Below are positions 6,983 to 59,306 of a stretch of 64,000 nucleotides of DNA, piece by piece (position 1 is the first letter of the stretch; every line of letters begins with the position of its first letter). The notes below the pieces were generated by a model that worked only from the letters and a program-made list of their open reading frames with translations, was not told the origin of the DNA and searched no databases. The stretch is from NCBI GenBank assembly GCA_033286805.1, contig GCA_033286805.1_4727.1; one strand, written 5' to 3'. A program made the position numbers and the translations under genes. This DNA comes from a phage.

Positions 6983-7008
6983 GAGCAGGGGCATGAAGCC
7001 CCCTGCTC
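6983..7008 (-). terminator. Intrinsic terminator hairpin (GAGCAGGGG...CCCCTGCTC) flanked by T-rich tracts on both strands
   Basis: 9-bp GC-rich stem with 8-nt loop directly after the stop of 7009..8232; GTTTATTTCG follows on the minus strand. Confidence 0.6.
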
Positions 7009-8232
7009 TTATTTGGCGTCGTTAAAATAAATATCAACAGCTCGTTCCGTTGCGTAGAGGAGACCAAGATTCACAGTCCCAACCACTTCCGGTGAACCGA
7101 TGATACGGTTAGCGATACTGGTGCCACTGAAGATAGCATCAAGGGTGTGCCCGTCTTCGGTTTTGTTCACACCATGACCCACGGAAGAGACAACGGATTT
7201 CGCTTGAGCTGCGAAGGTACCTTTATCGCCCATCCCCGCACCAAGGTCGTAACGCATGAAAATACGGATGGCGATCTGGTTCTCGCCTAACGGATTACCG
7301 TCTATTCTCACGTTACTATTATTGATACGCCCCGTAGTTGCTTCGTTGAGTTTCAGTTCCTTAACGCGTTTAGCTCGTGCTTTATCCGCTTCACCGACGA
7401 GCGCCGCCATGGTTTCACTCATATCCTCAATCTGAGCGCGGTACAGTACATCGATCTGTACAACTTCACCATGAACGTCAGCACGTGGGTTATACTGACT
7501 CATACGACGTAATGCTTCAACGGCTTCCTGACTCTCATCACTCAGATCGGTCGCAATCGGTTCTTCCAGTGTTGCAAGGATCGTTCGTGGTTCAACATGA
7601 TCGCCGATTTTCACGAGACCACGAATGTTGAGATGAGCGTCAACAATGAGCGTACGGCTCTTAATCGATGGTGTTACGAGACGATCGGCAAGATTGTCGA
7701 AGATATACGAACTGTCCTCGTGAGTCTCTGGAATATCCAGAATACCGACAAGAGACAGAACACCTGCGCGCCAAACAACCTGACCTGGGTTCCACCAATC
7801 GCGTTTAAAATAAAGACGATGGAAGACCACCACATCCTGATCCTTAACGCGATCCCCGACTTTATAATCGGTAATGAGATCGTGAGGATAATACTTACCT
7901 GGTCCTTTCCCGATTATCGTACCGAGCTGGAAAACCTCTTCCCCTAACTCTGGATCGTCGTATTGTATCGTCAGCGCAGTTTTGGTGACCTTCTTAACAA
8001 CACCGTCACCTTGGGCGGCAGCTGCAAAGAGTTTACCAACACGATGCGCGATGACAGTCTCGCCACCCGTACGCCATGGTTGTACATCGTAACCTTCAGC
8101 AGCAATCATGCGGTTGTGCTGTATACCTATAAATACGAGACGCTTTGGCGAAATCCAGCAAAATACATTTACTGTGCGTCTGGATTGTTCAGATAAGGTC
8201 GTTAATCTTATCCCGGAGGCGATGACAGGCAC
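7009..8232 (-). CDS. Multisubunit RNA polymerase beta-like segment (middle region; probable downstream exon of a split beta gene)
   Basis: IQHNRMIAAEG...VQPW...RTGGETVIAHRVG resembles the bacterial beta HDDANRALMGANMQRQAVP...VGTGME region; MGDKGT...GHGVNK resembles GDKxxGRHGNKG; ORF opens only 3 codons upstream of a GTG. Confidence 0.6.
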   Translation of the reverse strand: MPVIASGIRLTTLSEQSRRTVNVFCWISPKRLVFIGIQHNRMIAAEGYDVQPWRTGGETVIAHRVGKLFAAAAQGDGVVKKVTKTALTIQYDDPELGEEVFQLGTIIGKGPGKYYPHDLITDYKVGDRVKDQDVVVFHRLYFKRDWWNPGQVVWRAGVLSLVGILDIPETHEDSSYIFDNLADRLVTPSIKSRTLIVDAHLNIRGLVKIGDHVEPRTILATLEEPIATDLSDESQEAVEALRRMSQYNPRADVHGEVVQIDVLYRAQIEDMSETMAALVGEADKARAKRVKELKLNEATTGRINNSNVRIDGNPLGENQIAIRIFMRYDLGAGMGDKGTFAAQAKSVVSSVGHGVNKTEDGHTLDAIFSGTSIANRIIGSPEVVGTVNLGLLYATERAVDIYFNDAK

Positions 8233-8609
8233 ACCGCCTCCCGCTTACGTTCTCACGCAAGAGCAGACTATATCACATCTCGTTTCAAACGGTGCTTCTT
8301 CAGCACCTCAACGAGAGTTCACTTCTTCCCAGCGCATCCAGCGCCATTCTCTTATCCAAGGAGAATGCCTCACTCGAGGGGTACCGGGGGATGAATCCCT
8401 TAGTCGTTGAACCTTTACCTTAGAACGCTTCACAGCGATCCTTAGGTACTTGGCTGCGGATTGTCCTTAAGCTATTATCTGTTTTTATAACCATACCGTC
8501 TTTCTTTTCAGAATCCGTTTTGGTCGATAACAGCGATGGATGTCTTCGCAATTCAGTGAATCTCATCTACATGTCGCCACATAGACGGACCCTGCTATTA
8601 AAAGCGTTA
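8231..8609 (-). ncRNA. Group I intron (ORF-less), approximate boundaries
   Basis: Minus-strand reading gives P-like GAAUUGCGAAG (about 8543-8556), Q AAUCCGCAGCCAAGUACCUAAGG (about 8447-8466), R GGUUCAACGACUAAGGG (8394-8414), S GAUAUAGUCUGC (8267-8276), in canonical order with GACUA/UAGUC P7 pairing; stop codon immediately at the putative 5' splice site. Confidence 0.75.
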
Positions 8610-11600
8610 ATCATCTCTGTCGGCAGCAGGTACTGCAAGTGCCGATGTACTCATTATTGACGAGCTACCATCCGTTTTCTCGTCGTAGGGTTTCGTTTCA
8701 CCGTATACAGACACAATGTTTGCGTTAGGTGCGAGGTAAGCAGAAATACCTACGTCCCCACTATCCTTCGTACCTTCGGATACAACACCAATGTCCGACT
8801 TGTCGTATTCACGATCGCGTGCGCGTCGAAGCGATGTCTTTGAACGACCCCCGATACCGGTCATCGTTGCTTCTTCACCCTGCTTGATATCCAACATCGG
8901 GTTGGTTTCATCGATCACGATGGAAGCGCTGTCGTCGAGAATTTGGTTCCAGACGCTTACCGGACTGATTGAGATTTTCTGGCGATTTCCTTGACTGCTG
9001 TTCTCATTCTGACGAATAGCGCCAACCAGATCCTTATACACCAATTCAGCGAACTTATCGTACGTTTTAAAACGTTGGTAGTTCACATCGTTGGTGTTAG
9101 GTGCCCAGTCATCCAGAAGCAGTTCAACAGCACGCAGTAACAACATGGCGAAATCGGTAGGTTCTCCCATGTTCTGTAGCAACGTACGGCTTACCGGATC
9201 AACGAAAAGACGCTCCATGAGTTCAAGTTCGCGTAAATGACGAACCTTAAGTCCAGCACCATCGACAACGTTAAAATAGATATCTCGATTGTCAAAAGCG
9301 CCGCGAGCGTAACCAATGTAGTTACGGTACTCGTTAAACCCACCCAGCAACAACGTCGTCATGCGATCGTCTTTACTGAAAATCAAACTTTCGTCGTCAA
9401 AGCTCACCGCGAATTCATCGGGTGCTAAACCCATACGAGAACCGCGAGGTACCGTACGATAGTTTGCTTTAAGATGTTCTAATAACGGGGTAAGTCCACC
9501 CAGATAACTTAGAACAACACCGACCGGAATACGTACACCCATGAATTCAAGATCGGCAGCTTCGATCGGCATCTTAGCCGCATTGATACCGAAGAAATCG
9601 GGGAACGTCCCTACAGGTGTTGGTGTTTGTCCTGACTGACAGATATAGAGCTGATTGCGTTTATCGATTGCTAAGAATTCACCCAGCGTGTTACGCGCAA
9701 ACGTCAGGAGCCCTTCGGCTAACTGTTCGTTGAACCGATCTTCCCCGATGAACTCCGGCAATGTTTTTATATCGAGACGTATATCCCAATCAGCAAATTG
9801 GATTTGGGTATAGTTGCGTGCAAGCACAGCGAAGTAATACGGGACTTTGACGGCCGGATCAAAGACGTTACCACGTTTTAACGTGGTTAAGGGTGAGGAC
9901 TTATCGTAATACATCGCCGTAAGTTGACGTGTTAGCCAACGACCGGCGTTATTAACGACGCGCTCTGAACGTTTAACAAACACCTTACCGTAGGCGGTAC
10001 TCAACGCAACTTCGGATGACGACACCTTTCTGATAGGTTTATCGACGCGTTGTTTACGCATCCGGTACTTGATGCCGTTAACGACATAAATGCCATCCTT
10101 ACGAACCTTCGGCAACATCACCGGGAACGTGGTTGGGACACCGCCTACAGGAGCCAGTTTAATCGTGATGACTTGATAATCCCCCATCACGTCAACAACG
10201 TCTTCGACTTTATAACCCGTAACAGGGTAACCTGCTTGCTGCACCGCAACAACGGCAGCTGCGATGTCCTTTTGCATCACGTGTTCAACGTAATGTTTAT
10301 CCCACACCGCAAGCGTCGATTTACATAGGCTCTTATCGACGATAACATCCGCTTCCGGCATAACCTTTGCTGGCGCTAATTTCGCGGCTTTTGGTTTAAC
10401 TTCAACATACTCAGCAAGTGTTAATCCAGAACCGTCGGGTGCTTCGATTTCGTGGATAGCGTCAGCATTACGCATCGCTGCTTTATATTGAACGCCGCTT
10501 AACTGACCCGCATCCGCCAGATCGCTCGCGCGCACCAACACCGCATCTGATAACGACTGAATATATTCACCGTGCGTTTTTGGTAACGTTGCCGCGTCAA
10601 AGACATCAACCTTTTCTTCTTCGGTATTGTCGGTAACGACTTCGAAGAGATCGTCAGTAATGTCCTGATCTTCATCGGGTTGGAAATCTGGTTGTACTTC
10701 TACCCCGGGTACTTCACGGACATCTTCGAACGAGCGTTCTACAATGGCGTTCCACGCATCAGCGTCATCGTCTTCATCCGACCCACCAACCAACTCCGCT
10801 TCTAACTCATCGGGATCAAGAACAGTGGCCAGATCCTCACCGTTAGGAAGCACGACGTCGCGATCATCGTACTCCGCATCCGGGCTGTCCGCAAGAATAT
10901 CTCGCTCTTGACGAAGAACCTGTTCCTCTTCTTGTTTCTGTTCTTCTTCATTCGCGCTCTGCGACCACAGACGTGTTACCGCCATCATCCAACGACGCTG
11001 GAAGGTTTCAAGTGTCGTTTTATCGAGTTCTTCCCCTTCCTTAACAAGCCCGGTACGCCATTCCTCCAGTAGACCAAGATTCAACGTAAAGAAGTACACA
11101 CCGTCTGTAAATACAACGTTAAGCTTATCCAGTGTGGCTCTGTCTAACGAAGCCATCGTGCTGTTCTCACGATCGGTTCCCAACCAGCGGAAGAAGTCAA
11201 AGAACGATAGCTCCTCCGGCGTGGCGAAATTCATGAGGTTGTTACGGGTCGGTGCCTGTTGCGTGGTACGCATCAACGAAATCTTCGGCAATGTTGACGG
11301 TATACGGAACAACAGAAAGTGTTGACGATCGCTTTGCTGTGCGATTTCGTTGGCTTTCGACCAAATTGTTTTACGCACGTTGAACCATTCATCATACCAA
11401 CGGGTGAGCGTTGGACGATAAATGTACATGTGGTTAAGATGCGCGTAGTTAGCAACGATCTGAGCGTTGATGTTTTTCTCCACCGCGCTCAGATCGGTAA
11501 CCAAACGAAAACGACGATGTGACGCACGATAATCCAATTTCGCTCGTGGGAGTTGGAATCGTTGATCACGTCGAGGTGCGCCCTGTTTGGTTGCGAGATC

Positions 11601-11816
11601 ATCAGCAAACGAAATCCATAGTTGAGCACTTTCTTTACTCAGCATGTATTCGTTTTCTGGAGGACCTATCAATGAAGGATCCGTTGCGGTGTAATGATAG
11701 ACAGCATAACGCGGCAGCTGCAATAGCTGCACTAAACGTAATCTTGGTGATAGTAGCTCTTGGTAGCGTCTGACACCAAACTGTCGGTAGTAATCAAGGT
11801 ATTTAAGTTTTGCCAT
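8607..11816 (-). CDS. Multisubunit RNA polymerase beta-like subunit, N-terminal portion (1069 aa)
   Basis: C-terminal TGIGGRSKTSLRRARDREYD...GVVSEGTKDSGDVGISAYLA matches the bacterial beta GPGGLTRERAGFEVRDVH...[20 protein letters not shown] region; GGAG RBS before the ATG. Confidence 0.65.
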   Translation of the reverse strand: MAKLKYLDYYRQFGVRRYQELLSPRLRLVQLLQLPRYAVYHYTATDPSLIGPPENEYMLSKESAQLWISFADDLATKQGAPRRDQRFQLPRAKLDYRASHRRFRLVTDLSAVEKNINAQIVANYAHLNHMYIYRPTLTRWYDEWFNVRKTIWSKANEIAQQSDRQHFLLFRIPSTLPKISLMRTTQQAPTRNNLMNFATPEELSFFDFFRWLGTDRENSTMASLDRATLDKLNVVFTDGVYFFTLNLGLLEEWRTGLVKEGEELDKTTLETFQRRWMMAVTRLWSQSANEEEQKQEEEQVLRQERDILADSPDAEYDDRDVVLPNGEDLATVLDPDELEAELVGGSDEDDDADAWNAIVERSFEDVREVPGVEVQPDFQPDEDQDITDDLFEVVTDNTEEEKVDVFDAATLPKTHGEYIQSLSDAVLVRASDLADAGQLSGVQYKAAMRNADAIHEIEAPDGSGLTLAEYVEVKPKAAKLAPAKVMPEADVIVDKSLCKSTLAVWDKHYVEHVMQKDIAAAVVAVQQAGYPVTGYKVEDVVDVMGDYQVITIKLAPVGGVPTTFPVMLPKVRKDGIYVVNGIKYRMRKQRVDKPIRKVSSSEVALSTAYGKVFVKRSERVVNNAGRWLTRQLTAMYYDKSSPLTTLKRGNVFDPAVKVPYYFAVLARNYTQIQFADWDIRLDIKTLPEFIGEDRFNEQLAEGLLTFARNTLGEFLAIDKRNQLYICQSGQTPTPVGTFPDFFGINAAKMPIEAADLEFMGVRIPVGVVLSYLGGLTPLLEHLKANYRTVPRGSRMGLAPDEFAVSFDDESLIFSKDDRMTTLLLGGFNEYRNYIGYARGAFDNRDIYFNVVDGAGLKVRHLRELELMERLFVDPVSRTLLQNMGEPTDFAMLLLRAVELLLDDWAPNTNDVNYQRFKTYDKFAELVYKDLVGAIRQNENSSQGNRQKISISPVSVWNQILDDSASIVIDETNPMLDIKQGEEATMTGIGGRSKTSLRRARDREYDKSDIGVVSEGTKDSGDVGISAYLAPNANIVSVYGETKPYDEKTDGSSSIMSTSALAVPAADRDD

Positions 11817-12494
11817 GGGTTAGGCTCCACGAGGTCCCGTTAAGTTGCGTAATAGGAACGCAACCGTATCGTAACCAATATCGATGTTGAATTTATTTTT
11901 ACCACTTACCCAGAAAGCTCGCTTCTTGTGCGAGTTGGTAATTTCGTCAATAGCTTCCATGGAATAAAGAACGTTAACCGAGACCGTATCACCGTCGAAC
12001 CTTGTCTTCGCCTCAGTTCGCTACGCTGAGACCGCCTGCATGGATACGTACATCACAGGCTGCTTGCACTTTCATGCAAGAGGAGACTATATCAAACCGG
12101 CAGCACAACCTGCTACGGTAACCTACACTTCGAAGACGCTTGTCCTCTACAGGGTGGTAAATCCCTTAGTCGTTGAACCTGCGTTGTTTCACATTCTTGC
12201 AAACAAGAATGCCGTATTACTACGCAACAACCAGGCTGCTGATCGCCCATTGTTTCGCACCTTAGCACCGCTTACGCGGCTTTTCTTTCAGCCTAAGCCT
12301 CTTACGGAGGTAGTGCATCTCAACTGTTGTTTCTGCCTTTCGGCACCTCATGGGTCGTTGAGCTTTAGGGGTTCCCAGCAATTCGTAGGTTTTTCAAGCA
12401 CTCTCTTTCGAGAATACCGGACCAATTCAGTTAGTAAACAACATTATTACCATCCCCCATTCTCAAGGGTTAATTTTTTAAAATGATAGAATTA
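11814..12494 (-). ncRNA. Group I intron (ORF-less, about 680 nt), approximate boundaries
   Basis: Minus-strand P-like AAUUGCUGGGAACC (about 12370-12386), Q AUCAGCAGCC (about 12231-12250), R GGUUCAACGACUAAGGG (12160-12180, identical 21-mer to the other intron), S GAUAUAGUCUC (12085-12094). Confidence 0.7.
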
Positions 12495-13985
12495 ATGTGT
12501 TTTTGGGCTAACTCGAAGATCACCGCCTAAACCGGCGAGGTATGGCGCAGGGACAATAGTAGTTTCTACGAACGAAGCATTAGGTAACCAGTCGGGGTAT
12601 TCCCACGCAATAAATCGCTCGTCCGTTATTGGTTCCCAGTTGCTATCCAATTCGGTTTTCGGTTTTGCAGCGACGGTTGTACGCGCGTAACAGGTTAACG
12701 GAATGACGGATTGCATACCCGATACCGGATAACGTGTTACCATCGCTGCCAGGTTATTCCAGTACTTATATCCGGCAATATAGATAAGCTCGGTGTACGT
12801 GATGGGGTGAACATCCGCGCCGGGTTTATTCAACATCTCTGGGGGTAATTCACTCATACCACGGAACAGTCGAAACGAATCATTGTTCACATAGACAAGA
12901 CAAAGATATCGTCCATTAACCATGATAGGTTCGTTACGCACACCAGGATCGCTTAAGGTGTTCAGTAAACGTTCTATTCCGTCCCATGTTGTAAAGTCAT
13001 CGATGGTGTCTGGATCAAGAGTGACACGTTCACGTTCCATCGTTTCGGTATCGATAAGTTCAACTTCTGTAACATCACGGACAAATATTTCCTGCAAAAT
13101 CCCCGTACGTAACGCGTGTTGTGTTACAGGGAGAGCAGCTTTACTCATCTGGTATAACCCTAACTGAACTGCGGTACAGGAAGGCTGGTTAGGCGACCCT
13201 AGTACCTCCGTTGTGGGGTTAATTGCCGAAATAACGTTACGGGTTGAGTTCCAAACACGACGTGAGCCGAACTTCCCTTGGAAGATCCCTTTCTTACCTT
13301 GGAACATATCCAACAGTAAAGCGTAGATATCGTTGAATGTTCTCTGTAAGCTCCAGCGCTGGCCGTCGTAAACGGGATCGGAATAATCTTTTAATCCATC
13401 AGGGACGGTGTTAGAAATTGCAAGGAAACGACGATACAACTCCGTGATTTCTTGCTCGCTTTCATACCCACCTTCTTTTACTTCTATTTCACGTAAGCCC
13501 GCAGGCAATACCAGTAAGTGACGAGTCATCGCTTTGAACATGTTCTCTTCGACGACTTTAATTCGTAGCTCTCGTTGAGCTGAACCCGTTGAAACGAACT
13601 TGATATCCGCGACGTGTTGTGCAAAGAACCCATATCCTGTTTGTCCTGTTAGCGCATCGGACGCAACGAAGTCGCGTTGTTCAGGATCCCACCGAGCGTA
13701 CGCCTTCCCCGACATGATATCACCATAGAGGTGTTTTAGTCGAATGAGGCGGTCGTAAATGACAGGATGCAGGATTTCAACCTTGCATTCAATCACCGCA
13801 AATCGACGGTCTCGATCTTCACTACCCGCACTACCAAAGATGGTGTAAGAATAGAAACCGTCATCGTGGAAATTACCGGTGCTTGGGTCACGGATGCTCA
13901 TGCTCGTGATCTTGGGAAGAAAACGTAACTGCTGTTTATCGAGGTGTAAAATGCTAATGTTAAACGGCTCTCTGACTTTAGCCAT
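12492..13985 (-). CDS. Multisubunit RNA polymerase beta'-like subunit, N-terminal fragment
   Basis: DGFYSYTIFGS ~ beta' DGLFCARIFGP; FAVIECKVEILHPVIY ~ MGHIELASPTAHIWF; LLVLPAGLRE...ELYRRF ~ VLPPDLRP...LYRRV; GKKGIFQGKFGSRRVWNSTRNVIS ~ [23 protein letters not shown]. Start placed at the ATG at 13985 with AAGAGGAG RBS; ORF track extends to 14027. Confidence 0.7.
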   Translation of the reverse strand: MAKVREPFNISILHLDKQQLRFLPKITSMSIRDPSTGNFHDDGFYSYTIFGSAGSEDRDRRFAVIECKVEILHPVIYDRLIRLKHLYGDIMSGKAYARWDPEQRDFVASDALTGQTGYGFFAQHVADIKFVSTGSAQRELRIKVVEENMFKAMTRHLLVLPAGLREIEVKEGGYESEQEITELYRRFLAISNTVPDGLKDYSDPVYDGQRWSLQRTFNDIYALLLDMFQGKKGIFQGKFGSRRVWNSTRNVISAINPTTEVLGSPNQPSCTAVQLGLYQMSKAALPVTQHALRTGILQEIFVRDVTEVELIDTETMERERVTLDPDTIDDFTTWDGIERLLNTLSDPGVRNEPIMVNGRYLCLVYVNNDSFRLFRGMSELPPEMLNKPGADVHPITYTELIYIAGYKYWNNLAAMVTRYPVSGMQSVIPLTCYARTTVAAKPKTELDSNWEPITDERFIAWEYPDWLPNASFVETTIVPAPYLAGLGGDLRVSPKTH

Positions 13986-14230
13986 GGAGACACTCCTCTT
14001 TACCACCACCGGCTGCGGCGGTATCATCTGAACACACGAGAGACGTAATGGGTGATGGCGTCACCCATCGCTTCCTTGCTTGAGGCGAGGAAGTTATTAG
14101 GTTACGTACCTGCCTGATTTTATCAGGTGGGCGATGTGTGAAGTTACGCTTCAACATTATCAATGCCGAAGGTAAACTTCGTGCATCACGTTCCAACGTA
14201 ACATGGGAACGTATCGAACTGGAGGTATAC

Positions 14231-17200
14231 ATGGTAGATAAAACCCGTGTTGAGGGTGATGATAATTGGGACAACTGGGATGAAGACTTCTCCCTGGATC
14301 TCGATTTTAACGAACCCAAAGACGATCGTAAACCGATAACACGCTTTGCGATAGGAGCGGTTAAAGGTGCTGCTGAGGATCTTACTTCCTACGAAAGAAT
14401 GAAGGAGATCGCCAGAAACGCATTGCCTAAGGGCTACAGCGACGGTATGGATCTTATTGATTCCGCCGTCGGATCCACGAAGGAACTATACAATGAAGCC
14501 GTTCGTGACGTTCTTCCTAAGGTCCAAAGTTCAAAACGGTTAGCCGCACAACTGACCAAGAAATACCGTGCGAGCATGCCCGATTTCTCGAAGAAAATTC
14601 TTGAGCAATGGGAGCGAGAAGCCAAGGAAGAAGACGAACGTAAACAAGCTGAAGAAACCCTTCGTCAACGCATGGCGAGCGCGGGGGACGATGAGATCGC
14701 CCGCAAGGTTGCCGAGGTATTAGGCGAATCAGCAAACCAAAGCGCGGATCAGTTCGCTGAACAGCAAGCGAAAGAGAGTATCCGTGACGATATCGCTGAC
14801 AAACGGTACGCTGTAACCAACAAACAAATGAGTGCGATGCAAGAAGGCGTCGCCAAGATGGTTGGTTTCAACAACGAATTCGCTGCACGCTACATGCGTA
14901 AAAGCCTGGAACTGAAATATCGTTCCTTAGCGATTCAACGTGCAAGTTTTGATCAGCATAAAAAGTTAGCCGAAGTCTATATCGGTTTATTACAAAACAT
15001 CCAGAAGAATACGGCTTTACCTGATGCGGCTAAAGCAAAAATGTCGGAAGAATTCCGCCGTAGCGCGTACCAACGTTTCTTTGGTAATGCGTTAGATGCG
15101 ATGAGTTCTTTCGAGAACCGTTTCTTTGCCGATGTTAAGAAGAACCTCGCCACCAACGCATTAGGTGCTTTAAAAGGCGTCGTGTCCGGCGCAAACGATG
15201 CGTTATACGGTTTAAACGAAGCACGTGACTCGATGTCCATGATGGACGGGATGGGGTCAGAAGGCGATATTAAGGAAATGCAAGGAAAGATGTTGGGTCA
15301 GTTCATTGGCTCAACTGTCGCACCATGGATGGCTAATAAAGGCAGGATGGCGTTACGCGATTTAGCAAAACGTCACCCCAATGCTAAATTCGCTAGCGCG
15401 TTAAAAGCCGTGGATCAAGGTGGTGAGGCCGCCGCTTACACGACGCGTAATCTCGGTAAACTGCTCCAGGAAGATATTCGTAAGAACGAATTCAATCTTA
15501 GCGATCCTTTTTACAAGCAATTGTTACGCGGCGCAGGGCGTTGGGCGTTCAACATGGACAGCGGACGTAACTTCCGCGTGATGAACGACACCGCTGAAAC
15601 ACTGGCGGAGCAAACGTCTTTCGACGGTTTAACCTACCGCAGCATCAACGAGGTTATTCCAGGCTTTCTTGCACGCATTCTGAAAAGCAGTGAAGGCATC
15701 CGCACGGGAAACAGCGATCCTGACTACGAGGTCTATGACGGCATCAGCGGGCAATTCGTGTCTCAGCGCACGCGTGAACAAAGCGTCAATGACACGCTGT
15801 TTAACAAACGTACATTTGGTTATTACGCCAGCCGTTTCAATGAAGTCATCTCGGTCATCGATCCTGATAAGCAATTATCGGATAACGCAAGAAAAGGATT
15901 AGCAAAACAGCTAGCTCGTGACAGCGACGCAAACATTGCATTCGACCCGGCTCGTTTTACAGATGAAAGCAACTTCGATCGTAGTATCGACCGTGACGCT
16001 ATTAAGGAACTTTCTAATTACTTCCGTAACCGTTACGGTATCGACTACGTACCCGATGAAAAAGGACAACGCCATCAGGTCATTGGAAACCGCGGGCAAT
16101 ATTACACGGAACGTAACCGAGCGGATCTTCGCTACGGAAATCTGAAATCGTTACAACCGGATATCCAGCGTAACCTTAACCTACTGAAACGCACTGGTGA
16201 CGTCCAATATCTGGAACGTATTGGTATTGTAACGAGAAATAGCGACGGAAGTTACTCGGTTAATCACGATCGGTATTTCTCTGAAATCGATCGGTACATC
16301 GACCGACCGGAGTACGCTGACCGCGGCGATGTTAATACGCGATTAACCGCTCAGGAAACAAGAGCGCTGGCGCTGGGTTATCGTGACGCAAAACCGTCAG
16401 CTGGCGACGTCCAAAATGCGGGTCTGCCGAACATCGACCGTAAGGCTGCTGGAACAGTAACCATTGATGAAAACATCGGTTACGATAAATGGTGGAACGA
16501 CACAGGTGTTATCACCACATCGCTCGAAGAACAGAATCGAGCGTGGCAAGAACTTTATCTCGAAGCGTTGTCCGAAGCATCCGAACAACGTGTCGAAATG
16601 CTTGCGTTGCTGAAAGCCATTTCTGAGAAAGACTGGTCTAATAACGTTTCGCTGGATGGCGAAGATGTACCTGAAGGTACGGCACCCATTTCATTTATCG
16701 ATCGTGCCAAACAAAAACTCGGCACACGCAACCTCTTTAAAGGTGGTCGTAATCTCCTCTGGAAAGGAATTAAAAATACCGCACGTTTGGGTGTTAAAGG
16801 CGCGCGCTGGGGTGCAGAACGCACGTTGGGTAGTTTGGTAAATTCTGGCCGACGCATTATCAATTTCAACCGCTTCGTGTTCGGCGCATTATCCAAGGTC
16901 GATCAGGTTCCGTTTGACATTTACGTTAAAGGGGAATCCCAACCACGCATACTGGCTGCCAAACTTCGTCAGGGGTTATACTTCGACGAAGCGACAGGAA
17001 AAGCCGTAAAACGGATGAAGGATATCAAAGGCCCACTCGTTGATGCGGATGGAAACATCGTAATCAGCAACGAGGATATCGAGAAAGGGTTGGTCACTCG
17101 CGCTGGTCGTGCCTTTGATAATTCAGGACTTAAAGCATGGGCACGTGAAGGTCTTAATGGAATAACGACGGTATTAAGTCTCCCACGGATGTTAAAACGC

Positions 17201-20200
17201 GGTGCGGTCGAGATCTACAAGCAGCTTGACAAAACACCCGACGTTTACGTCAAGGGAGAATCAACGCCTCGTCTATTATCCATGGTGTTAGCGGCGGGTG
17301 GGTACTTCCGTCGCTCGGATGGACAAGTCATCAAAAATCTTGAAGACATCGATGGTGATGTTGTTGATGCACAAGGTAACGTCGTACTTACGCTTGCCGA
17401 CATGCAGAAAGGACTTGTCGATAAATACGGTAAGGCGATTCGTCGTTTAAAAGAAAAGCTCATCAACTTCGGTGTGAAAGCTTTCACGTTACCGTTAACC
17501 TTACTACGCAAGACAAAGGACATCCTTAAAGCCCTTCCAGGTAAAACCGTTAACGGTCTACGGCGGATGGGATTAAATTTCCAATCACCTGACGCATTAC
17601 TGGTGGGAACAACGTCGAGCATGGTAGATCGGCTCGATGCGATTTACCAGCTTCTTGACCAGCGTATGCCGGGTGGTGATAAGGATTACCGCGATTGGAA
17701 TGGCGATGGTGTTCGAGAAGGATCGTTGGAAGACCTGAAACGTAAGCGTGAAGCCAAGGAAAACGGTAAGGACGACACCGGCAAAGATTCCAATAAAGGG
17801 GAAGAAAAGGAGAAGAAACGAGGATTACTCGGAAGCCTTTTCGATATGCTCGGCGATACCGCATTAGGTAAACGACTCATGGCGAGTCCGCTTGGAAAAA
17901 TTCTAGGCGGTCTTGGGGCGGTGTTAAGCGGCGGAGCATCGTTAACCGGATTGTTGGGCAAGGGTCTCATTAGTGGAACCGGCGCGCTAGTCAAGGGAGG
18001 ACTAAGTGCGGCAGGATGGTTAGGACGTGGTGCGTTAATGGCGGGTGGGGCCGCGTTGAACGCCGTTGGTGGTTTATCGGGATTAGGCGCATTCCTTATA
18101 TCACCTGTTGGGCTTGCTATTGCAGGTGGTGCATTGGCTGCTTATGCTGGATGGAAGATCTATCAACATTTCGCCGAGAAGCCTGACCCGATGCAGAAGC
18201 TCCGTCTTATTGCATACGGTGCAAAAGGGGACGATAAAGACTTCAATAAGAAGCTGCTTGCGACAGAAACATACCTCACCGACCATGTGGTTATGACCGG
18301 GGATACCATCGGATTCGATCCGAAAGCGGATTCGGAAAAGATTCTCGAAATCTGGGAATTGTCTCTGGAAGATTCCGATCGAATGAACGAATGGAAACGC
18401 TGGTATCTGCATCGTTTTATTCCTGTTTTCGCTCGTGCGTACAAACTCTGGAAAGAGCATATGCCGGACGAGAAGAAATACATGGAAATGGATAAATATC
18501 CAAACGGTGAGAACAAAGTGAAATGGTCAGAAGCGTTCATCTGGCCTTCCGATAGTCCTGATGGTCCGTATTACGTCGAAGCTAACCCGTTGGGTTCTTC
18601 TGGTGCGACGCGTTATATTGCTGGTCAAGACGTCAAAACCTTGATGCTGAAACAACTCGAAGCCATCAAGAAAGAGTACCAGAATCAGATTAAGCAATAC
18701 ACTCATGATGAGGCTATTGCTGATTGGTCACGGATGTCTGACACACAACGTAAATCCGTTGCGCCTAACGCATTACGTGGTCAGAAAGCGTCGTTACGTT
18801 TTAACGATAAACGTTACAACAGCGCTGGCGCTAAAGGACGACAGAAACTGGATGCAACCGCGGTTATTGAAAGCGTAGACCGTCGCGGTAGGAAATGGGT
18901 TGCCGGTGGATACATCGATGAACTCACCAGTCTCCGTGTTCGTGCGTACGGTATTAAGGTTCCGTTGCTAAGTCAGATAAAAGTGCTGATGGAACTTGAA
19001 GACGCTGTAGAACCTGGTGTAGTCGCTGAAGGTAAAGGTGTTAAATACGGTGGCGATCTTGTTGCGCTCTACAAGAAATTCGCGACGAAGTTCGGAAGAG
19101 ACGTTAACAGCAAGCGGGATCAGGATATCTGGTTTGCTTGGATGAATAACCGTTTCCTGCCCGTCTTTTTAACCTATTACCAACAAGTTAGCGAAATGGG
19201 TGGTCAAGGTCTTCTGTCCGACGTGGTACAGAACCTGAAAGACAGCCAACGTTGGGAAATCGGTGAAGCACTTGTCGCAACGCAATACCGTGATGAGAAA
19301 GGTACACTGCAGCCCGTATGGTCCTGGAATAGTTGTGGTTTCTCCGGTACTGAAGCTAACACCACCAGCAGTTCAACAAAGAGCCAACTCGATCTGTTAA
19401 AAGAATATGCGGATAAAGAGAAGGTTCGTGAGAAGAACGCGGAAGCATCACAAGAGGATACCGATAAATTATCGAAGATCCAAGAGCTGATGATGAAGCA
19501 GGCTGGGTACGAGAAGAAAGACGGTGTCTGGCAGAAGAAATCTCGCATTACCGGCGGGATGAGTAACTCCGAAGCGAATTACAACCCCAATGGGAATAAG
19601 GTCGGTGAAAGCAGCTTTACGGCTTCAGCTACTTCCAGTGCGGGATTGGGGTCAACCGGCGATCTTACTGGATTGCCTAACATGGGCTTACAGAAACCTG
19701 CAACGGGACCAGGTCCTGAAGCTGGACGTCGTGCGCTTGTTAAATCCGCTGTAAAACGCGGTATTACCGATCCAATGGAAATGGCGATGTTCCTTGCGAA
19801 CATCGAACATGAATCGGGGAACTACACTCACGTACGTGAGGGGAACTATAAGACACCAGAGCGTCTTAAACAGGTCTTCCCTTACAAATTCCGTGATGTG
19901 CAGGATGCCGCACAGACGATCAGCATGGGGCCGGAAGCGGTATTCGAACGTGTGTATGGTAATCGTAAAGATCTCGGAAACACACAGAAAGGGGACGGGG
20001 CGAAGTATTTAGGACGTGGCTTCATTCAGGTTACTGGTAAAGCTAACTACGCTCGTCTGTCTAAGACCTTGAATAAGGATCTTGTCAGCGATCCGACATA
20101 CCTGGAAACGCCGGAAGGTGCAGCGGAAGGTAGTGTTGCATGGTGGCTCAACCGAGGTAACGTATTACGCGATCCCGCAAAACGGGGTGACGTACGCCAA

Positions 20201-20896
20201 GTTCGTTATCTGGTTAACGGTGGTTTTAACGGATTACGCGATGTTGAACAACGTTCAGCTTATTGGATTCAGGCGGCTAAGAACGGCACCCTGAAGAGAA
20301 TGATGGACGAGTTATCAGGGTCAACATCAGACGATCAAGCTGAAGGACCGACTACTGCCGAACAGGTGAAGAACGAAGCGGCACAAGAGGCAAACGGAAC
20401 ACCTGCTGTAAGCAACGATCCGCAAGCCCCAGTATCTTCTACTATCCCTGAAGCTAAACCGTCTGCGGCTGCCGGGACGGCTCCAGCACCTGGAGAAGCA
20501 TCGCCAACGCCTGGAAGTTTCGAAACAGCGAAAGCTGCGGCAGGACAACCGACATCGACGCCAGCGCTTAGCGATTTGCCGTCAAACCCGGGCGCAAATC
20601 GAGGGATATCGGTTCCGAATACGCCTGCACAGGTTGCGCAGTCTGCGACACAAACGTCGGCTGCAAGTGAGAACTTCTACGGTAGCGCGGGTGAAATTCT
20701 CCGACAGCAGCTGACCACGCAGCAGAACATCGAGAAGAACACCGGTAGAACGAATGAACTTATTTCGGAATTAATCCAAGCCGTTAAGGGTTCTTCTATC
20801 GGTAAGGGTTCTGCAGGTCCTTCTCAACAACAGACGATGTCGCTACCTAATCGTCCGCAAGGAATATCTCCAACACGGACAAGGTACGCACAGTAG
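14231..20896 (+). CDS. Giant protein (about 2220 aa) with GH19 lysozyme/chitinase-like domain; tape-measure/ejection-protein-like
   Basis: GH19-like motifs FLANIEHESG and YLGRGFIQVTGKANY (about nt 19780-20290); long Gly-rich hydrophobic segment (about nt 17880-18170); internal tandem duplication at about 16910-17560; start placed at the ATG at 14231 with GGAGG RBS (ORF opens at 14138). Confidence 0.7.
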   Translation: MVDKTRVEGDDNWDNWDEDFSLDLDFNEPKDDRKPITRFAIGAVKGAAEDLTSYERMKEIARNALPKGYSDGMDLIDSAVGSTKELYNEAVRDVLPKVQSSKRLAAQLTKKYRASMPDFSKKILEQWEREAKEEDERKQAEETLRQRMASAGDDEIARKVAEVLGESANQSADQFAEQQAKESIRDDIADKRYAVTNKQMSAMQEGVAKMVGFNNEFAARYMRKSLELKYRSLAIQRASFDQHKKLAEVYIGLLQNIQKNTALPDAAKAKMSEEFRRSAYQRFFGNALDAMSSFENRFFADVKKNLATNALGALKGVVSGANDALYGLNEARDSMSMMDGMGSEGDIKEMQGKMLGQFIGSTVAPWMANKGRMALRDLAKRHPNAKFASALKAVDQGGEAAAYTTRNLGKLLQEDIRKNEFNLSDPFYKQLLRGAGRWAFNMDSGRNFRVMNDTAETLAEQTSFDGLTYRSINEVIPGFLARILKSSEGIRTGNSDPDYEVYDGISGQFVSQRTREQSVNDTLFNKRTFGYYASRFNEVISVIDPDKQLSDNARKGLAKQLARDSDANIAFDPARFTDESNFDRSIDRDAIKELSNYFRNRYGIDYVPDEKGQRHQVIGNRGQYYTERNRADLRYGNLKSLQPDIQRNLNLLKRTGDVQYLERIGIVTRNSDGSYSVNHDRYFSEIDRYIDRPEYADRGDVNTRLTAQETRALALGYRDAKPSAGDVQNAGLPNIDRKAAGTVTIDENIGYDKWWNDTGVITTSLEEQNRAWQELYLEALSEASEQRVEMLALLKAISEKDWSNNVSLDGEDVPEGTAPISFIDRAKQKLGTRNLFKGGRNLLWKGIKNTARLGVKGARWGAERTLGSLVNSGRRIINFNRFVFGALSKVDQVPFDIYVKGESQPRILAAKLRQGLYFDEATGKAVKRMKDIKGPLVDADGNIVISNEDIEKGLVTRAGRAFDNSGLKAWAREGLNGITTVLSLPRMLKRGAVEIYKQLDKTPDVYVKGESTPRLLSMVLAAGGYFRRSDGQVIKNLEDIDGDVVDAQGNVVLTLADMQKGLVDKYGKAIRRLKEKLINFGVKAFTLPLTLLRKTKDILKALPGKTVNGLRRMGLNFQSPDALLVGTTSSMVDRLDAIYQLLDQRMPGGDKDYRDWNGDGVREGSLEDLKRKREAKENGKDDTGKDSNKGEEKEKKRGLLGSLFDMLGDTALGKRLMASPLGKILGGLGAVLSGGASLTGLLGKGLISGTGALVKGGLSAAGWLGRGALMAGGAALNAVGGLSGLGAFLISPVGLAIAGGALAAYAGWKIYQHFAEKPDPMQKLRLIAYGAKGDDKDFNKKLLATETYLTDHVVMTGDTIGFDPKADSEKILEIWELSLEDSDRMNEWKRWYLHRFIPVFARAYKLWKEHMPDEKKYMEMDKYPNGENKVKWSEAFIWPSDSPDGPYYVEANPLGSSGATRYIAGQDVKTLMLKQLEAIKKEYQNQIKQYTHDEAIADWSRMSDTQRKSVAPNALRGQKASLRFNDKRYNSAGAKGRQKLDATAVIESVDRRGRKWVAGGYIDELTSLRVRAYGIKVPLLSQIKVLMELEDAVEPGVVAEGKGVKYGGDLVALYKKFATKFGRDVNSKRDQDIWFAWMNNRFLPVFLTYYQQVSEMGGQGLLSDVVQNLKDSQRWEIGEALVATQYRDEKGTLQPVWSWNSCGFSGTEANTTSSSTKSQLDLLKEYADKEKVREKNAEASQEDTDKLSKIQELMMKQAGYEKKDGVWQKKSRITGGMSNSEANYNPNGNKVGESSFTASATSSAGLGSTGDLTGLPNMGLQKPATGPGPEAGRRALVKSAVKRGITDPMEMAMFLANIEHESGNYTHVREGNYKTPERLKQVFPYKFRDVQDAAQTISMGPEAVFERVYGNRKDLGNTQKGDGAKYLGRGFIQVTGKANYARLSKTLNKDLVSDPTYLETPEGAAEGSVAWWLNRGNVLRDPAKRGDVRQVRYLVNGGFNGLRDVEQRSAYWIQAAKNGTLKRMMDELSGSTSDDQAEGPTTAEQVKNEAAQEANGTPAVSNDPQAPVSSTIPEAKPSAAAGTAPAPGEASPTPGSFETAKAAAGQPTSTPALSDLPSNPGANRGISVPNTPAQVAQSATQTSAASENFYGSAGEILRQQLTTQQNIEKNTGRTNELISELIQAVKGSSIGKGSAGPSQQQTMSLPNRPQGISPTRTRYAQ

Positions 20897-27477: not shown

Positions 27478-28152
27478 TTAGCCCTCATCAAGGTTATTCT
27501 GGAGATGCATCGCGGTGAGGATAACGCCAACCGCCGAAACCGATTTTGCCTTGCTGTCTTCAGGGAGCTGCTCCAAGCTTACGGTACCTGTTTCTAACAG
27601 CATGCGGTTCATCGCGTTGAACTTCTTATCGTCACCACCACGAGCCTGCATCAGCTCTCGGTTCACGTTCGGCATCGACCGTCCTAACGTCGCTTGCATT
27701 TCCGGCTGACTCCAAGTGGAACCCTTACTTTCACCCGTCGGCTGATTGGTGAGTTGGTCCTTGGTGTTGTTGTTTTTCGGAATCGATATTTTAGCACTCA
27801 ACGTTTCGGCTTGTCGGCGGTTTGGAATCAGGTACAATCTGGTTGGGCGGTCACGAAGCACCAATTGCCCTGTTTTCTGGTCGGTGAGATAAATGCGCTG
27901 GAAGAAGGGGAAACCGTATTTCTTACCAACTTCCAACGCACGTTTTATCGTCACCTCGTTTTTGTTCATGTTGGGTACCCAGATGGGTAGAATCTCTTTC
28001 TTATCCCGACATAAACGCATATAGGCATCAAACGTCTCATCATCGATTTCAGCAAAACGTTTTTTGTAAATAGCGTAAGTCGGGCTCGATTCACCCACCA
28101 GGTCTTTGATATACCCAAGAATGAATTTTTCTGCTGCAGCGCGGTTGGACAT
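27478..28152 (-). CDS. hypothetical protein (224 aa)
   Basis: Long ORF. Confidence 0.5.
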   Translation of the reverse strand: MSNRAAAEKFILGYIKDLVGESSPTYAIYKKRFAEIDDETFDAYMRLCRDKKEILPIWVPNMNKNEVTIKRALEVGKKYGFPFFQRIYLTDQKTGQLVLRDRPTRLYLIPNRRQAETLSAKISIPKNNNTKDQLTNQPTGESKGSTWSQPEMQATLGRSMPNVNRELMQARGGDDKKFNAMNRMLLETGTVSLEQLPEDSKAKSVSAVGVILTAMHLQNNLDEG

Positions 28153-35966: not shown

Positions 35967-35998
35967 CCCTCCTCCTTCCCTGTTGGGTTGGAGGAGGG
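35967..35998. terminator. Conserved stem-loop family member in inverted orientation (CCCTCCTCC...GGAGGAGGG) between convergent genes
   Basis: Reverse complement is nearly identical to the hairpins at 51964 and 63924. Confidence 0.55.
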
Positions 35999-36070
35999 TT
36001 ATGCCGTCAAGCAAAAAAAAAAAAATGATAGTCACAGGCTCTCCAATGAAGGAGAGCCGTGACCGTCAGT

Positions 36071-45926: not shown

Positions 45927-46040
45927 GCTATGATAATCCTTCTTCGATACCTTCTGAACCCGTGGTTCAGAATGCGAAGCTGAAGCCATACTTCAGCGTT
46001 ATTTTCTATATCGTTATTTAAATCAGTAGGAGATTACAGC

Positions 46041-49004: not shown

Positions 49005-49475
49005 TTATAACACGCCCCAAGCCATATTGGGTACAGGCTCGTTACGTTCGATGTAATACATCAAGCGTTCTTTAAGTTTGGTTAACGCCTCAGCAACGAT
49101 GTTCTCTATGGCGACGACCTTTTCCATATTGCTCATCGTATCCTTCCACGTGAACCATTCGATCAAATTAACGGTGTGTAAGACCTTGTTATCGTCGGTC
49201 ATAACCTGGGTATTTTCACGACGATCGCGGGTTGTATACAACGGCGTTTGTATATTCGTTTTAATACGTGTCCAAAGCTCTTCCAGGAACTCACTCGATC
49301 GACTATCTGCCGTGACGATAAGCTCACTACGTACTGATTGTTCTCCTCGCTTTTCAATAACAAATAAACCATCGTAATCGATGTTCATCAATTTACGGAG
49401 GTTATCATTGCTATTCCAGTCTTTTACAACGGCAGGAAGTCGGCTATTGTAACCTTCAGGCAATCTCTCAATCAT
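49005..49475 (-). CDS. hypothetical protein (156 aa)
   Basis: ORF. Confidence 0.45.
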   Translation of the reverse strand: MIERLPEGYNSRLPAVVKDWNSNDNLRKLMNIDYDGLFVIEKRGEQSVRSELIVTADSRSSEFLEELWTRIKTNIQTPLYTTRDRRENTQVMTDDNKVLHTVNLIEWFTWKDTMSNMEKVVAIENIVAEALTKLKERLMYYIERNEPVPNMAWGVL

Positions 49476-49905: not shown

Positions 49906-50080
49906 CAGTTAGCTCCTAAATAGATCTACAACGAACTTTCGATGGAAGGGAGTATGTTTCCCTTCCTTGGGTTCGTTTATTGCGTTACGAAGCTTTACAG
50001 CTTGCGTAAACCACAACGGTTCCATTGTTGATTACCTCAACATCATCCTGGTCCGTTTGATCGCAAGTTTGGTGTCCGCA

Positions 50081-56711: not shown

Positions 56712-59306
56712 TTATAACGTGACTGTACCTAATTTGGTTGTCTTATTGAGATTAATGACAGAGATCTGGGTATCGCTGGTCGTAATCGTTCCGATATTAA
56801 CGCGCTGTCCTTTATCATCTTCTTGCTTGTAGATGGTTAACTCCAGCTCTAACTGGTCGCCATTAGGAACAACGGAAACGTACCATGTTTTATTACCTGG
56901 TGAACTATTATAGTCTTTTAGGTTATAATGGCCTTTAGGTAAGGTCATGACCTTACCGGCAAACAAGCAAGTGATGTCTTCGTTGATGTAGATATCGTAA
57001 CCGGAAGCAGCAACGACCGTAGAAACCATGTAGACATGTTTGACGGTACCTGCGAGGTATTCGGCTACGCTTGGTCCGTATGCTCTGAATACCTGTCCAC
57101 CATTGGATAAACGGTACGCTTCCCCAAGGTCGACGTACCCCAGACCCCATACCGGATGGACGTTGTAACGACGTCCGCTGCTGGCCAAATACTCATAAAG
57201 GTCATCTACCGATAACCCAACCCACGCACCACTGGCGTTCTTAGCACCACGGAATTGAAAATCGTTTGCGTTTCCTGGAGTAGCAACGCGCACGGACATC
57301 GCCCCGGCGATTAACCAACCATCAGCGCATTTACGATACCCTAATGGTCCCCACGCCCCCAGAGTGTTGTCAATGTTATTGATTTGGTCCCGAAGCGTGT
57401 AAGTTACCGTTGTGACGACCCCCGTTACGGTAATGTTCCCTTCCCGAGCGCTGGTCGTCACTTCAGACGTCATGATAGCCGCCTTCCTGGAGACAGGATC
57501 GTACACCGATATGAACATCAAGCAGGGGGCCCCTGTGGACGCCGGAGGAACCACGATAGAGCCGCGTATAACGGAGTATCTCTCAAGCTTCGGCGACGTG
57601 TAGGTATCCCAACAAAGTTTGGCCGCTCTGTCGAGTTCTGCCTGCGTGATGCTTATCGATGCCCCCTTTAAGGCTAACGTATCAGGGTCGACCTCAACCC
57701 TGCTGCTTAATCTCCCTTCCTGTAGCCAACTGCCAGTCACTATCGTCTGGTCGTCGCTCATGTGAATTGTCGCGAAACGTTCGCTCACTGAACCGCCTAC
57801 GTGGACGCGACTGGTTGGCGGGAATCCCATCACATCGACCACGCTGTTCTTATAGCGATAACTCAAATCCCAATCAGCGGTTATTAACCGCTTTTCGAAA
57901 TTGCTCTGACCCCCTGGGATGCGGGATAAGACATAGACCTTGTTCTTCGCCGTGAAGCCAACGAAGCCGTGTGGGCCACAGGACCCAACAACGCGGTCCT
58001 TGATGTTAATCCAGTTCCCCACCTCGTACGCGGATATTGGGGTGAGTTTTGCAAGTTCGTCGAAGACATTACCAGCGTAGTCACCAATGCGATACGATCG
58101 AACCATCGGCGAGGCCAGGTTATCATTCACACAGCTGGTAACCAGACCGTCCTCGCGAATGACCATGTTCCCGGTAAGGTTGGCCCCACCCCATGCCCAG
58201 AATCCGTCTTTATAATCACGGTCACGAGTTGACATCGTACAAGGGCCACGAAAGGACACCGAACCATCGGAGTTCACTTGTAATGACGGCGTTCCAGCAT
58301 TGGGACTTAATGTCCATTGCTTCGTATCCAGGTTCAAATCGACGTACCAGATCGTTGTCCCCTGGTCGGCGATATTCACGGTACTGTTAGTGTACCATGC
58401 CGTCGTGCAGTAGATTCGCGCAATGTTACCTTTTACAACAGCGTAATTTCTAATACCCGCACGAATAGGGACAAGCGTCGTTAATTGACTAGGATACGCT
58501 GTATGGTTTAACACTTCCCAGAAAAGAATATGGTCGAGGTTGGTTTTCGTCGTTCCCTCAAAAATCTTTCCACTAAACCCGGTTTCTTTGGTGAACTGTA
58601 CAGCCGCACCATTTTTAATGTCCGATAACATACAGGTATGTACATCGAGCCCGTTTTTCCCTTCATACGCCCACCAGACTAACAGGTACACTTTGTTTTT
58701 GTAGACGAACGTACTACAGCGCGCCATGCTGTCGGTAATACCCTCTACCGACCCGGTACACATGGCGGCGACATGCTTCTCTACGTTGAATGTGCCGTTA
58801 GTCAGAACGATGTAGGGCTGTGTGTTCTCGTCGTTTGCGTCCATCGCGACACCCATCATCACGCCGTGGTTATGACACCAGACCGATTGTGGGATTTTAG
58901 GTAGTGCTGTAGGCCTATACTGGCGACTGGTACCTATGGCGGTATCGAGCAGCCCTTCACCATTGTTTTTACAGATAGCGTAATACACCCCGTTTTTCAT
59001 GCTGTTGGATGCCGAGCGAAGGATGGAAACACTCCCGTCTGCTTCCTGACAGATTCCGTAGGTACGACGTTCGGTCATGGCTATCGCGCCATCAGCTGAC
59101 CCTTCGATGGCGAGAGGGAAGTAACTTTGATCGCCAATTTGTTCGATATCGGTTACGTCAATATCAATGTACTTTTCCATCTCGGTGTTGAACTCTGCGG
59201 TGCTGTACGCGCCGAGATCGCCAGCCTTTAACCCTGTTGGATTGCTTCGACTAGCGATACGCTCAGTAACGCTGGTCACCAGTTCGCTAAATTTTTTCAT
59301 TGCCAT
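56712..59306 (-). CDS. large hypothetical protein (864 aa), possibly tail spike/receptor-binding
   Basis: Long ORF within the tail-fibre cluster; no motif recognised. Confidence 0.45.
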   Translation of the reverse strand: MAMKKFSELVTSVTERIASRSNPTGLKAGDLGAYSTAEFNTEMEKYIDIDVTDIEQIGDQSYFPLAIEGSADGAIAMTERRTYGICQEADGSVSILRSASNSMKNGVYYAICKNNGEGLLDTAIGTSRQYRPTALPKIPQSVWCHNHGVMMGVAMDANDENTQPYIVLTNGTFNVEKHVAAMCTGSVEGITDSMARCSTFVYKNKVYLLVWWAYEGKNGLDVHTCMLSDIKNGAAVQFTKETGFSGKIFEGTTKTNLDHILFWEVLNHTAYPSQLTTLVPIRAGIRNYAVVKGNIARIYCTTAWYTNSTVNIADQGTTIWYVDLNLDTKQWTLSPNAGTPSLQVNSDGSVSFRGPCTMSTRDRDYKDGFWAWGGANLTGNMVIREDGLVTSCVNDNLASPMVRSYRIGDYAGNVFDELAKLTPISAYEVGNWINIKDRVVGSCGPHGFVGFTAKNKVYVLSRIPGGQSNFEKRLITADWDLSYRYKNSVVDVMGFPPTSRVHVGGSVSERFATIHMSDDQTIVTGSWLQEGRLSSRVEVDPDTLALKGASISITQAELDRAAKLCWDTYTSPKLERYSVIRGSIVVPPASTGAPCLMFISVYDPVSRKAAIMTSEVTTSAREGNITVTGVVTTVTYTLRDQINNIDNTLGAWGPLGYRKCADGWLIAGAMSVRVATPGNANDFQFRGAKNASGAWVGLSVDDLYEYLASSGRRYNVHPVWGLGYVDLGEAYRLSNGGQVFRAYGPSVAEYLAGTVKHVYMVSTVVAASGYDIYINEDITCLFAGKVMTLPKGHYNLKDYNSSPGNKTWYVSVVPNGDQLELELTIYKQEDDKGQRVNIGTITTSDTQISVINLNKTTKLGTVTL

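Follow-up and report, generated by a model that had tools for sequence, protein, structure and literature searches.

Group I introns without endonuclease genes in the putative virion RNA polymerase genes of a Goslar-like jumbo phage

The DNA discussed here is a stretch of 64,000 nucleotides from a phage (contig GCA_033286805.1_4727.1 of assembly GCA_033286805.1), and this whole stretch is referred to below as the window. Between positions 7,009 and 20,896 it carries what is very probably the virion RNA polymerase (vRNAP) and ejection module of a Goslar-like chimallivirus, in which two genes are broken by group I introns that carry no endonuclease gene. The origin of the window from such a phage is supported by comparison with Escherichia phage vB_EcoM_Goslar (NC_048170), a phiKZ-like nucleus-forming jumbo phage. 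The module has 95.8% nucleotide identity to its Goslar counterpart, and the full 64 kb is colinear with Goslar 200216-237304 and then with Goslar 1-27821. An initial annotation of the window had called it jumbo-phage DNA, which this comparison confirms. It had also treated the open reading frames (ORFs) of the module as whole genes. The ORFs are located where it placed them, but the minus-strand ones are incomplete; exon fragments were taken as whole genes because both introns had been missed. Four minus-strand pieces, namely the ORFs of 407, 1069 and 511 amino acids (aa) and a short hidden exon, make up two genes, designated A and B, with one group I intron each. The coordinates of these features and of the divergent giant gene, designated C, are collected in Table 1.

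The order of genes in phiKZ, namely gp175 (head protease), gp176, gp177, gp178, gp179, gp180, the divergent gp181 and gp182, is reproduced in the window. The phiKZ proteins gp178, gp180 and gp181 are matched in the same order and orientation, and the flanking genes are homologues of gp175, gp176, gp177 and gp182, so that the phiKZ-type arrangement suggested in the initial annotation holds. The sizes of the proteins are also alike, with identities of 31% for B and gp178, 38% for A and gp180 and 25% for C and gp181. Goslar has the same module (gp207, gp205 and gp204) and the same flanking genes, with a protein identity of 98.8% in B and 98.0% in C. All four ORFs matched jumbo-phage PHROG families with E values between 1e-120 and 1e-293, and ORFs of 1069 and 2252 codons are far beyond chance at 48% GC. 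The Pfam search returned no family for the minus-strand ORFs and a sub-threshold GH19 match for the giant ORF (E 0.0022). It has been shown experimentally that phiKZ gp178, gp180, gp80 and gp149 form the virion RNA polymerase (RNAP) that is injected with the DNA (PMC10612078), and the phiKZ record labels gp178 and gp180 as structural head proteins. Presence in the virion, injection and early transcription without sigma, all known for phiKZ (PMC10612078), have also been described for the Goslar vRNAP (PMC12908238). Both gp178 and gp180 align end to end with B and A, and the sigma independence and virion presence proposed for the window polymerase are carried over from the phiKZ experiments (PMC10612078).

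Gene B encodes the beta-like subunit. In phrog_3148, a family of 1424 positions labelled 'RNA polymerase beta subunit', the 1069-aa ORF corresponds to positions 2-1050 (E 3.5e-290 for exon 1) and the 407-aa ORF to positions 1050-1420. The first 28 codons of this mechanically called 407-aa ORF (8232..8149) are intron sequence, and its PHROG match starts at ORF residue 28. The alignment with phiKZ gp178 breaks at the same place: residues 417-1072 align with 10553..8610 and residues 1073-1433 with 8148..7051. Spliced B (1448 aa) aligns with the uninterrupted Goslar gp207 with zero gaps. A single-sequence search of the PDB with B found no RNAP, and a word-indexed homologue search yielded 2 proteins only. 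When the C-terminal 912 residues of P0001, a near-identical protein, were used in an HMMER scan, 2052 relatives were found, and a profile made from 42 of them matches Thermus RNAP beta (1IW7_C) with an E value of 6.7e-18. The match consists of four colinear blocks, GTFIINGxxR, the fork-loop region, EHDDANR and GDKxxxRHGNKG, which indicate that B corresponds to the N-terminal two thirds of beta. Ahead of this part, B has a phage-specific extension of some 540 aa with an acidic stretch in it.

The beta'-N-like subunit is encoded by gene A. The 511-aa ORF matches phrog_2986 (E 2.8e-161 for exon 1) except for the final ~55 family positions, and residues 1-490 of phiKZ gp180 align with 13985..12519 at 37.7% identity. 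The last 59 codons of the gene, including the FDGD of DFDGD, are missing from this ORF and are located 519 nucleotides (nt) further on; once spliced, gene A encodes 548 aa. Spliced A matches the AR9 beta' N-terminal subunit 7S00_d with an E value of 4.7e-4, GGDFDGD lying over SGDYDGD, and the catalytic DFDGD motif of A is complete only after intron removal. Since A has only four cysteines and these are scattered (81, 284, 376, 446), it has no zinc ribbon. The beta-like gene, the beta'-N-like gene and the lack of a zinc-finger region in the beta' fragment had all been put forward in the initial annotation, and each is borne out, the first by the profile check and the second once the gene is spliced. 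Intronless alleles of 548 aa are found in public assemblies (P0153, P0154, P0155 and others) and are essentially identical to spliced A from Met15, P0154 and P0155 having 2 residue differences each from the predicted protein. As the intronless alleles begin at Met15, the likely start codon of gene A is at 13985, and an in-frame ATG further upstream, at 14027, is probably unused. The stop codon of gene A lies 3 nt ahead of the start codon of gene B. The predicted peptides that span the junctions contain GLGGDFDGDTVSVNVLYSMEAIDEITNSHK in A and AADRDDPK in B.

Two regions of the 64 kb, and no others, match Rfam; both are hits to RF00028 (group I intron) on the minus strand, with E values of ~1e-11 and a gathering score of 50. 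RF00028 matches above the gathering score are also present in Goslar, in phiKZ, in PhiPA3 and in the relatives L007 and L008 described below. Intron 1 separates the first Asp of the beta' catalytic motif from the Phe, intron 2 follows two conserved Asp residues of beta, and both are inserted after a GAU Asp codon within an active-site motif. With slashes marking the splice sites, the boundaries are GGUGAU/C...AAGG/UUCGAC for intron 1 and GAUGAU/U...UUCG/CCAAAG for intron 2. In both cases U is the last base of the 5' exon and G that of the intron, removal restores the reading frame, and the products equal natural uninterrupted alleles. Intron 2 was placed by alignment with the uninterrupted Goslar gp207. 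The junction of intron 1 was found by following the sequence beyond the Rfam match to the exon that starts FDGDTVSVNV, and it was confirmed by the 548-aa intronless alleles. The P7 strands GACUA and UAGUC are present, and among the window, L007, L008 and PhiPA3, which are four sequences only, double changes keep pairing in 23 of 107 predicted pairs. The ORF list, Pfam and PHROG revealed no endonuclease ORF within either intron of the window. The sole ORF inside an intron is one of 148 aa at 12040-12486 on the plus strand, antisense to intron 1. A gene is called there in the Logan contig; neither Pfam nor PHROG gave a match, and the ORF is most likely spurious.

Table 1. Features of the polymerase and ejection module in the window
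Feature	Position	Strand	Remarks
Terminator-like hairpin	6983..7008	-	9-bp stem, 7 GC pairs, T-rich tail; directly after gene B stop
ORF 407 aa	7009..8232	-	ORF list
Gene B exon 2	7009..8148	-	codons 1070-1448 + stop
Intron 2 (group I)	8149..8609	-	461 nt; Rfam RF00028, 55.3 bits over 8244-8611; DRDD/PKR
ORF 1069 aa	8607..11816	-	ORF list
Gene B exon 1 (beta-like vRNAP subunit; phiKZ gp178 / Goslar gp207 orthologue)	8610..11816	-	codons 1-1069, ending ...AADRDD
Gene A exon 2	11820..11999	-	59 codons + stop, starts FDGDTVSVNVLYS; translation
Intron 1 (group I)	12000..12518	-	519 nt; Rfam RF00028, 56.5 bits over 12063-12447; GGD/FDGD
ORF 511 aa	12492..14027	-	ORF list
Gene A exon 1 (beta'-N-like vRNAP subunit; phiKZ gp180 / Goslar gp205 orthologue)	12519..13985	-	codons 1-489 from ATG 13985
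ORF 2252 aa	14138..20896	+	divergent; ORF list
Gene C (phiKZ gp181 / Goslar gp204 orthologue)	14138..20896	+	2252 aa; PHROG 3201, E 4e-293
GH19-type peptidoglycan hydrolase domain of C	19733..20404	+	residues 1866-2089

The two intron sites are polymorphic among Goslar-like phages. Three relatives from IMG/VR were compared (L007, L008 and L009, the last being Goslar), with ~95-96% identity in DNA and 99% in protein B. Goslar carries an intron of ~2 kb with the HNH gene gp206 at the beta' site and has an empty beta site. In L008 the beta' site is empty, and the beta site holds an intron of 1583 nt with an ORF of 403 aa of the HNH/NUMOD type. L007, like the window, has an intron without an endonuclease at each site. 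More alleles appear in the two protein clusters, which have 665 and 235 members, namely B proteins of 1448 aa and 1069 aa, intronless A proteins of 548 aa, and A proteins with at least six different read-through tails after GGD. The Goslar beta' intron is 86.9% identical to intron 1, and 1570 nt that include gp206, a gene of 490 aa, replace 94 nt of the window. Intron 2 is 94% identical to the L008 intron over its 3' 320 nt and 72% identical in the 5' core, a stretch that is coding in L008. The L008 ORF, which has HNH and NUMOD domains, finds its best match in the phage database in PhiPA3 gp210 (36% identity, E 5e-46), and in both L008 and PhiPA3 the endonuclease ORF is situated upstream of the ribozyme core, with which it overlaps. 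Given this gp210-like ORF and the aligned ribozymes, intron 2 is a disarmed copy of a gp210-type mobile intron. The PhiPA3 gp210 intron sits after two Asp residues, bordering the equivalent of phiKZ gp178 D1072 (Birkholz et al., Science 2024; PMC11620839). The mobile intron of PhiPA3 gp211/gp210/gp209 thus has the same insertion site as intron 2 and a homologous ribozyme; however, it keeps its endonuclease gene and its host is Pseudomonas, whereas the window copy has no endonuclease gene, so that it can neither nick competitors nor move unaided, and the host is E. coli.

The exon sequence around intron 2 carries a trace of homing. Compared with intronless Goslar, the mismatch density around the intron-2 site reaches 26 and 21 per 100 nt, about eightfold higher than the background of ~3; comparisons with the intron-bearing L007 and L008 show no rise there. 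In protein B, 9 of the 13 amino-acid differences from the intronless P0001 fall within residues 1009-1076. The flank haplotype VGIV...RPF...ISSV...AVDRDDGKR is present in all three intronless alleles sampled, and KPY...SSI...AADRDD in all nine intron-bearing alleles sampled, one of which has a shorter tract. The flank of intron 2 is a co-conversion tract, as is produced when a diverged donor homes into a site. At the beta' site, the A homologue P0288 (38 contigs) is intronless and the stretch before the intron site is strongly diverged, TQVGQVFLAGLGAD/FDGD in place of TIVPAPYLAGLGGD/FDGD. This stretch may be the footprint of a past intron gain and loss, or a target variant that resists the endonuclease.

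Intron insertion at these sites extends to other phages. Between phiKZ gp180, which reads ...GAD and then stops, and a hidden exon that starts FDGDTVSF and is equivalent to A exon 2 lie gp179, which is endonuclease-like, and a group I core of 92 bits; phiKZ therefore shares the beta' intron site (GAD/FDGD). It differs from the window in that its beta gene is uninterrupted and its beta' intron keeps the endonuclease. Introns and endonucleases in the RNAP genes of phiKZ are already in the literature (PMC11512511). Among the best 120 homologues of A, 34 have no DFDGD-type motif, and ~30 of these 34 end at G[AG]D or a few residues beyond it, so that a considerable part of this sample has an occupied beta' site. 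In a survey of 80 IMG/VR relatives, a best-score set biased towards uninterrupted genes, the beta site was occupied in the two Goslar-like loci only. In RefSeq, phiKZ gp180 (L003 14159-15789) and Goslar gp205 (L001 13530-15574) end at the intron and omit the FDGD exon, and the Goslar record annotates the ribozyme without a joined beta' coding sequence. There is also a link to the T4-type td intron (subgroup IA2), found in the thymidylate synthase gene of T4-like coliphages, which has an exact match of 32 nt (UCCGGGAUAAGAUUAACGACCUUAUCUGAACA) and a further match of 15 nt with intron 2 in the P7-P9 region. The matching 32 nt are window 8186-8217, or positions 393-424 of intron 2, and are common to more than 220 phage records. 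Both td and intron 2 open with an in-frame UAA. They differ in host gene, in insertion site and in the remainder of the ribozyme, and td has a GIY-YIG endonuclease in another loop. The match suggests that the two share IA2 ancestry or that parts of introns have passed between unrelated E. coli phages.

The third gene of the module, C, is separated from gene A by a spacer of 152 nt and encodes a giant virion protein. Residues 42-1205 match phrog_3201, and residues 66-1761 align with phiKZ gp181 at 24.6% identity (E 2e-45), leaving the hydrolase parts unaligned. In the literature the phiKZ protein is a peptidoglycan hydrolase that forms part of the cell-puncturing device of the virion (PMC5380687). 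In gp181 the hydrolase is an SLT domain (PF01464, residues 1885-1978); C carries a GH19-type domain there and has no C-terminal SLT domain. This domain matches the PHROG 181 endolysin family (E 5e-53) and the PDB entries 9EOI (E 1.9e-24) and 4OK7 (E 3.5e-19), and matches to GH19 chitinases are weaker (~1e-3). A candidate pair of catalytic Glu residues, E1892 and E1901, is found in HESGNYTHVRE. About 170 residues of the endolysin of Salmonella phage SPN1S (4OK7) align with the domain of C, and the HES...E pair is conserved. C differs from the GH19-type endolysins in that the domain lies near the C-terminus of a virion protein of 2252 aa and is not a free lysis enzyme. The initial annotation was therefore right to describe a divergent gene of about 2200 aa with a hydrolase that is GH19-like and not a lytic transglycosylase. 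As this exchange of GH19 for SLT is also found in Goslar, it is not new.

A mechanism can be proposed from these comparisons. The module would be expressed late, with A and B forming one minus-strand transcription unit that would be closed by the hairpin at 7008..6983. The Goslar record annotates a terminator at the equivalent position, and a scan for sigma-70 promoters found sites no commoner than in shuffled sequence. The A-B RNA would have to lose two group I introns before both subunits could be read. The A protein would supply the N-terminal half of beta' including DFDGD, B would supply the N-terminal two thirds of beta, and, by homology with phiKZ gp180 and gp178, the two would join two subunits encoded elsewhere, the C-terminal subunits of beta and beta' (homologues of gp149 and gp80). 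The complex would be packaged in the head and injected with the DNA, and would transcribe early genes without the host RNAP or sigma, and the GH19-type muramidase domain of C would open the peptidoglycan at ejection. Both introns have lost HNH homing-endonuclease genes that are still present at these sites in sister genomes. The homologies, the identity of the introns, their exact junctions, the polymorphism among relatives and the co-conversion tract are shown by the sequences; splicing, packaging, early transcription and resistance to cleavage are in this scheme predictions from sequence and homology.

Several points weigh against this interpretation. Both Rfam scores are just 5-6 bits over the gathering threshold, and the P1/guide sequence, examined by eye, offers only 3-6 bp of pairing between GAU/ and the GUC of the conserved GGUCCG. 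Splicing of the A and B transcripts in vivo is what we infer from the junctions, the virion location of A and B is assumed from orthology, and no homologue of gp80, a further vRNAP subunit, was found in the 64-kb window. Could the introns be dead? It might be argued that splicing was lost along with the endonucleases, so that the polymerase genes are pseudogenes and the phage is defective. The Rfam scores are indeed lower than those of the endonuclease-bearing counterparts (56.5 bits against 67.7 in Goslar for intron 1, 55.3 against 67.8 in PhiPA3 for intron 2), and no clear P1 helix was found. However, both endonuclease-less introns are also present in the independent L007 (~96% identical overall) and have thus persisted through divergence. 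The exact exon-1 product of gene A occurs on 29 contigs of up to 244 kb. The exons have no frameshifts or stops, the protein is 98-100% identical to intronless alleles, and substitutions in the ribozyme helices are compensatory. Decay of this kind is very unlikely.

The interruptions could also be real additional gene splits, with beta (1069 + ~380 aa) and beta'-N each made as two polypeptides and no splicing involved. RNAPs of the phiKZ type are already divided into N- and C-terminal polypeptides (PMC10612078), and gene callers do give the pieces as separate ORFs (L006 and NCBI records). Against this, both gaps match the group I intron model, the ribozyme helices covary among relatives, and the genes are uninterrupted in near-identical phages. 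No start codon is found close to FDGD in A exon 2, the 407-aa ORF begins at a GTG within the intron, and the metal-binding loop would be broken if D and FDGD were on different polypeptides. In phage 201phi2-1 an intron reported in the vRNAP subunit gene gp273/274 is backed by proteomics and two spliced reads (PMC11512511). Additional splits are therefore extremely unlikely, and A and B are best regarded as two spliced genes. That A and B belong instead to the non-virion (middle/late) polymerase is almost certainly wrong: both phage enzymes are split homologues of beta and beta' that the PHROG labels do not separate, but a tblastn search with A and B of the phiKZ regions that contain gp55, gp68, gp71-74 and gp80 gave no match at E < 0.01, to the non-virion subunits gp55, gp71, gp73 and gp74 or otherwise, while gp180 and gp178 align over their full length and the order of the genes relative to the head protease, gp176, gp177, gp181 and gp182 is kept.

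Elsewhere in the window, an ORF of 224 aa at 27478-28152 on the minus strand matches phrog_3233, 'RNA polymerase beta subunit' (E 2e-65), and corresponds to Goslar gp196. This label is unverified, as PDB sequence search and tblastn against the fetched parts of phiKZ gave no link of the ORF to RNAP. Downstream of the module, all on the minus strand, lie genes for a UvsX-like recombinase (28890-30380), a large RNase H-family protein (31808-33346) and an SbcC-like protein (43470-45989), a set of replication and recombination genes that is ordinary for this phage group. No tRNAs were found within the 64-kb window. At 35974-36025 the window crosses both ends of the linear Goslar GenBank record (237304 then 1, with an overlap of ~50 nt); therefore either the source genome is permuted relative to Goslar or the ends of the record are arbitrary. 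Two stretches are without a close Goslar counterpart. One, at 49154-50117, takes the place of small hypothetical genes. The other, at 57032-58967, falls within an ORF of 864 aa (56712..59306) that is flanked by two tail-fibre-like genes, and it may concern host range. Goslar-like contigs of 235-248 kb turn up in numerous NCBI drafts that are labelled as E. coli (O157 included) or Salmonella enterica; neither complete E. coli genomes nor PLSDB plasmids yielded a match to the module. Goslar-like phages are often sequenced together with bacterial isolates, either as a carrier state or as contamination.

The polymerase module was known before and has been annotated in Goslar. It is textbook material for phiKZ-like phages and so adds no new biology in itself; what is added is the corrected gene structure and the polymorphism of the introns. 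The correction has value for annotation, because RefSeq Goslar and many NCBI drafts list the exon fragments as hypothetical proteins and omit the FDGD exon. The introns of the window have no endonuclease and are therefore passengers without mobility of their own. As they interrupt the target sites of the endonucleases, the genome should resist the cognate endonucleases of co-infecting relatives. It is tempting to ask whether such introns are immunity alleles that are selected for and not decaying leftovers. This idea is tentative and rather doubtful at present. If it is true, the two sites, both occupied by unarmed introns that can still splice, would resist nucleases of the Goslar type (beta') and of the L008 type (beta) without the cost of a nuclease, and the many allele types would be a balanced polymorphism driven by competition within co-infected cells. 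Goslar-like phages show empty, armed and disarmed states of two introns at two active-site motifs of one enzyme. Since Goslar infects E. coli and gene-knockdown tools can be used, the idea of the intron as a weapon, demonstrated for PhiPA3 versus phiKZ, would be testable with natural alleles in a convenient host.

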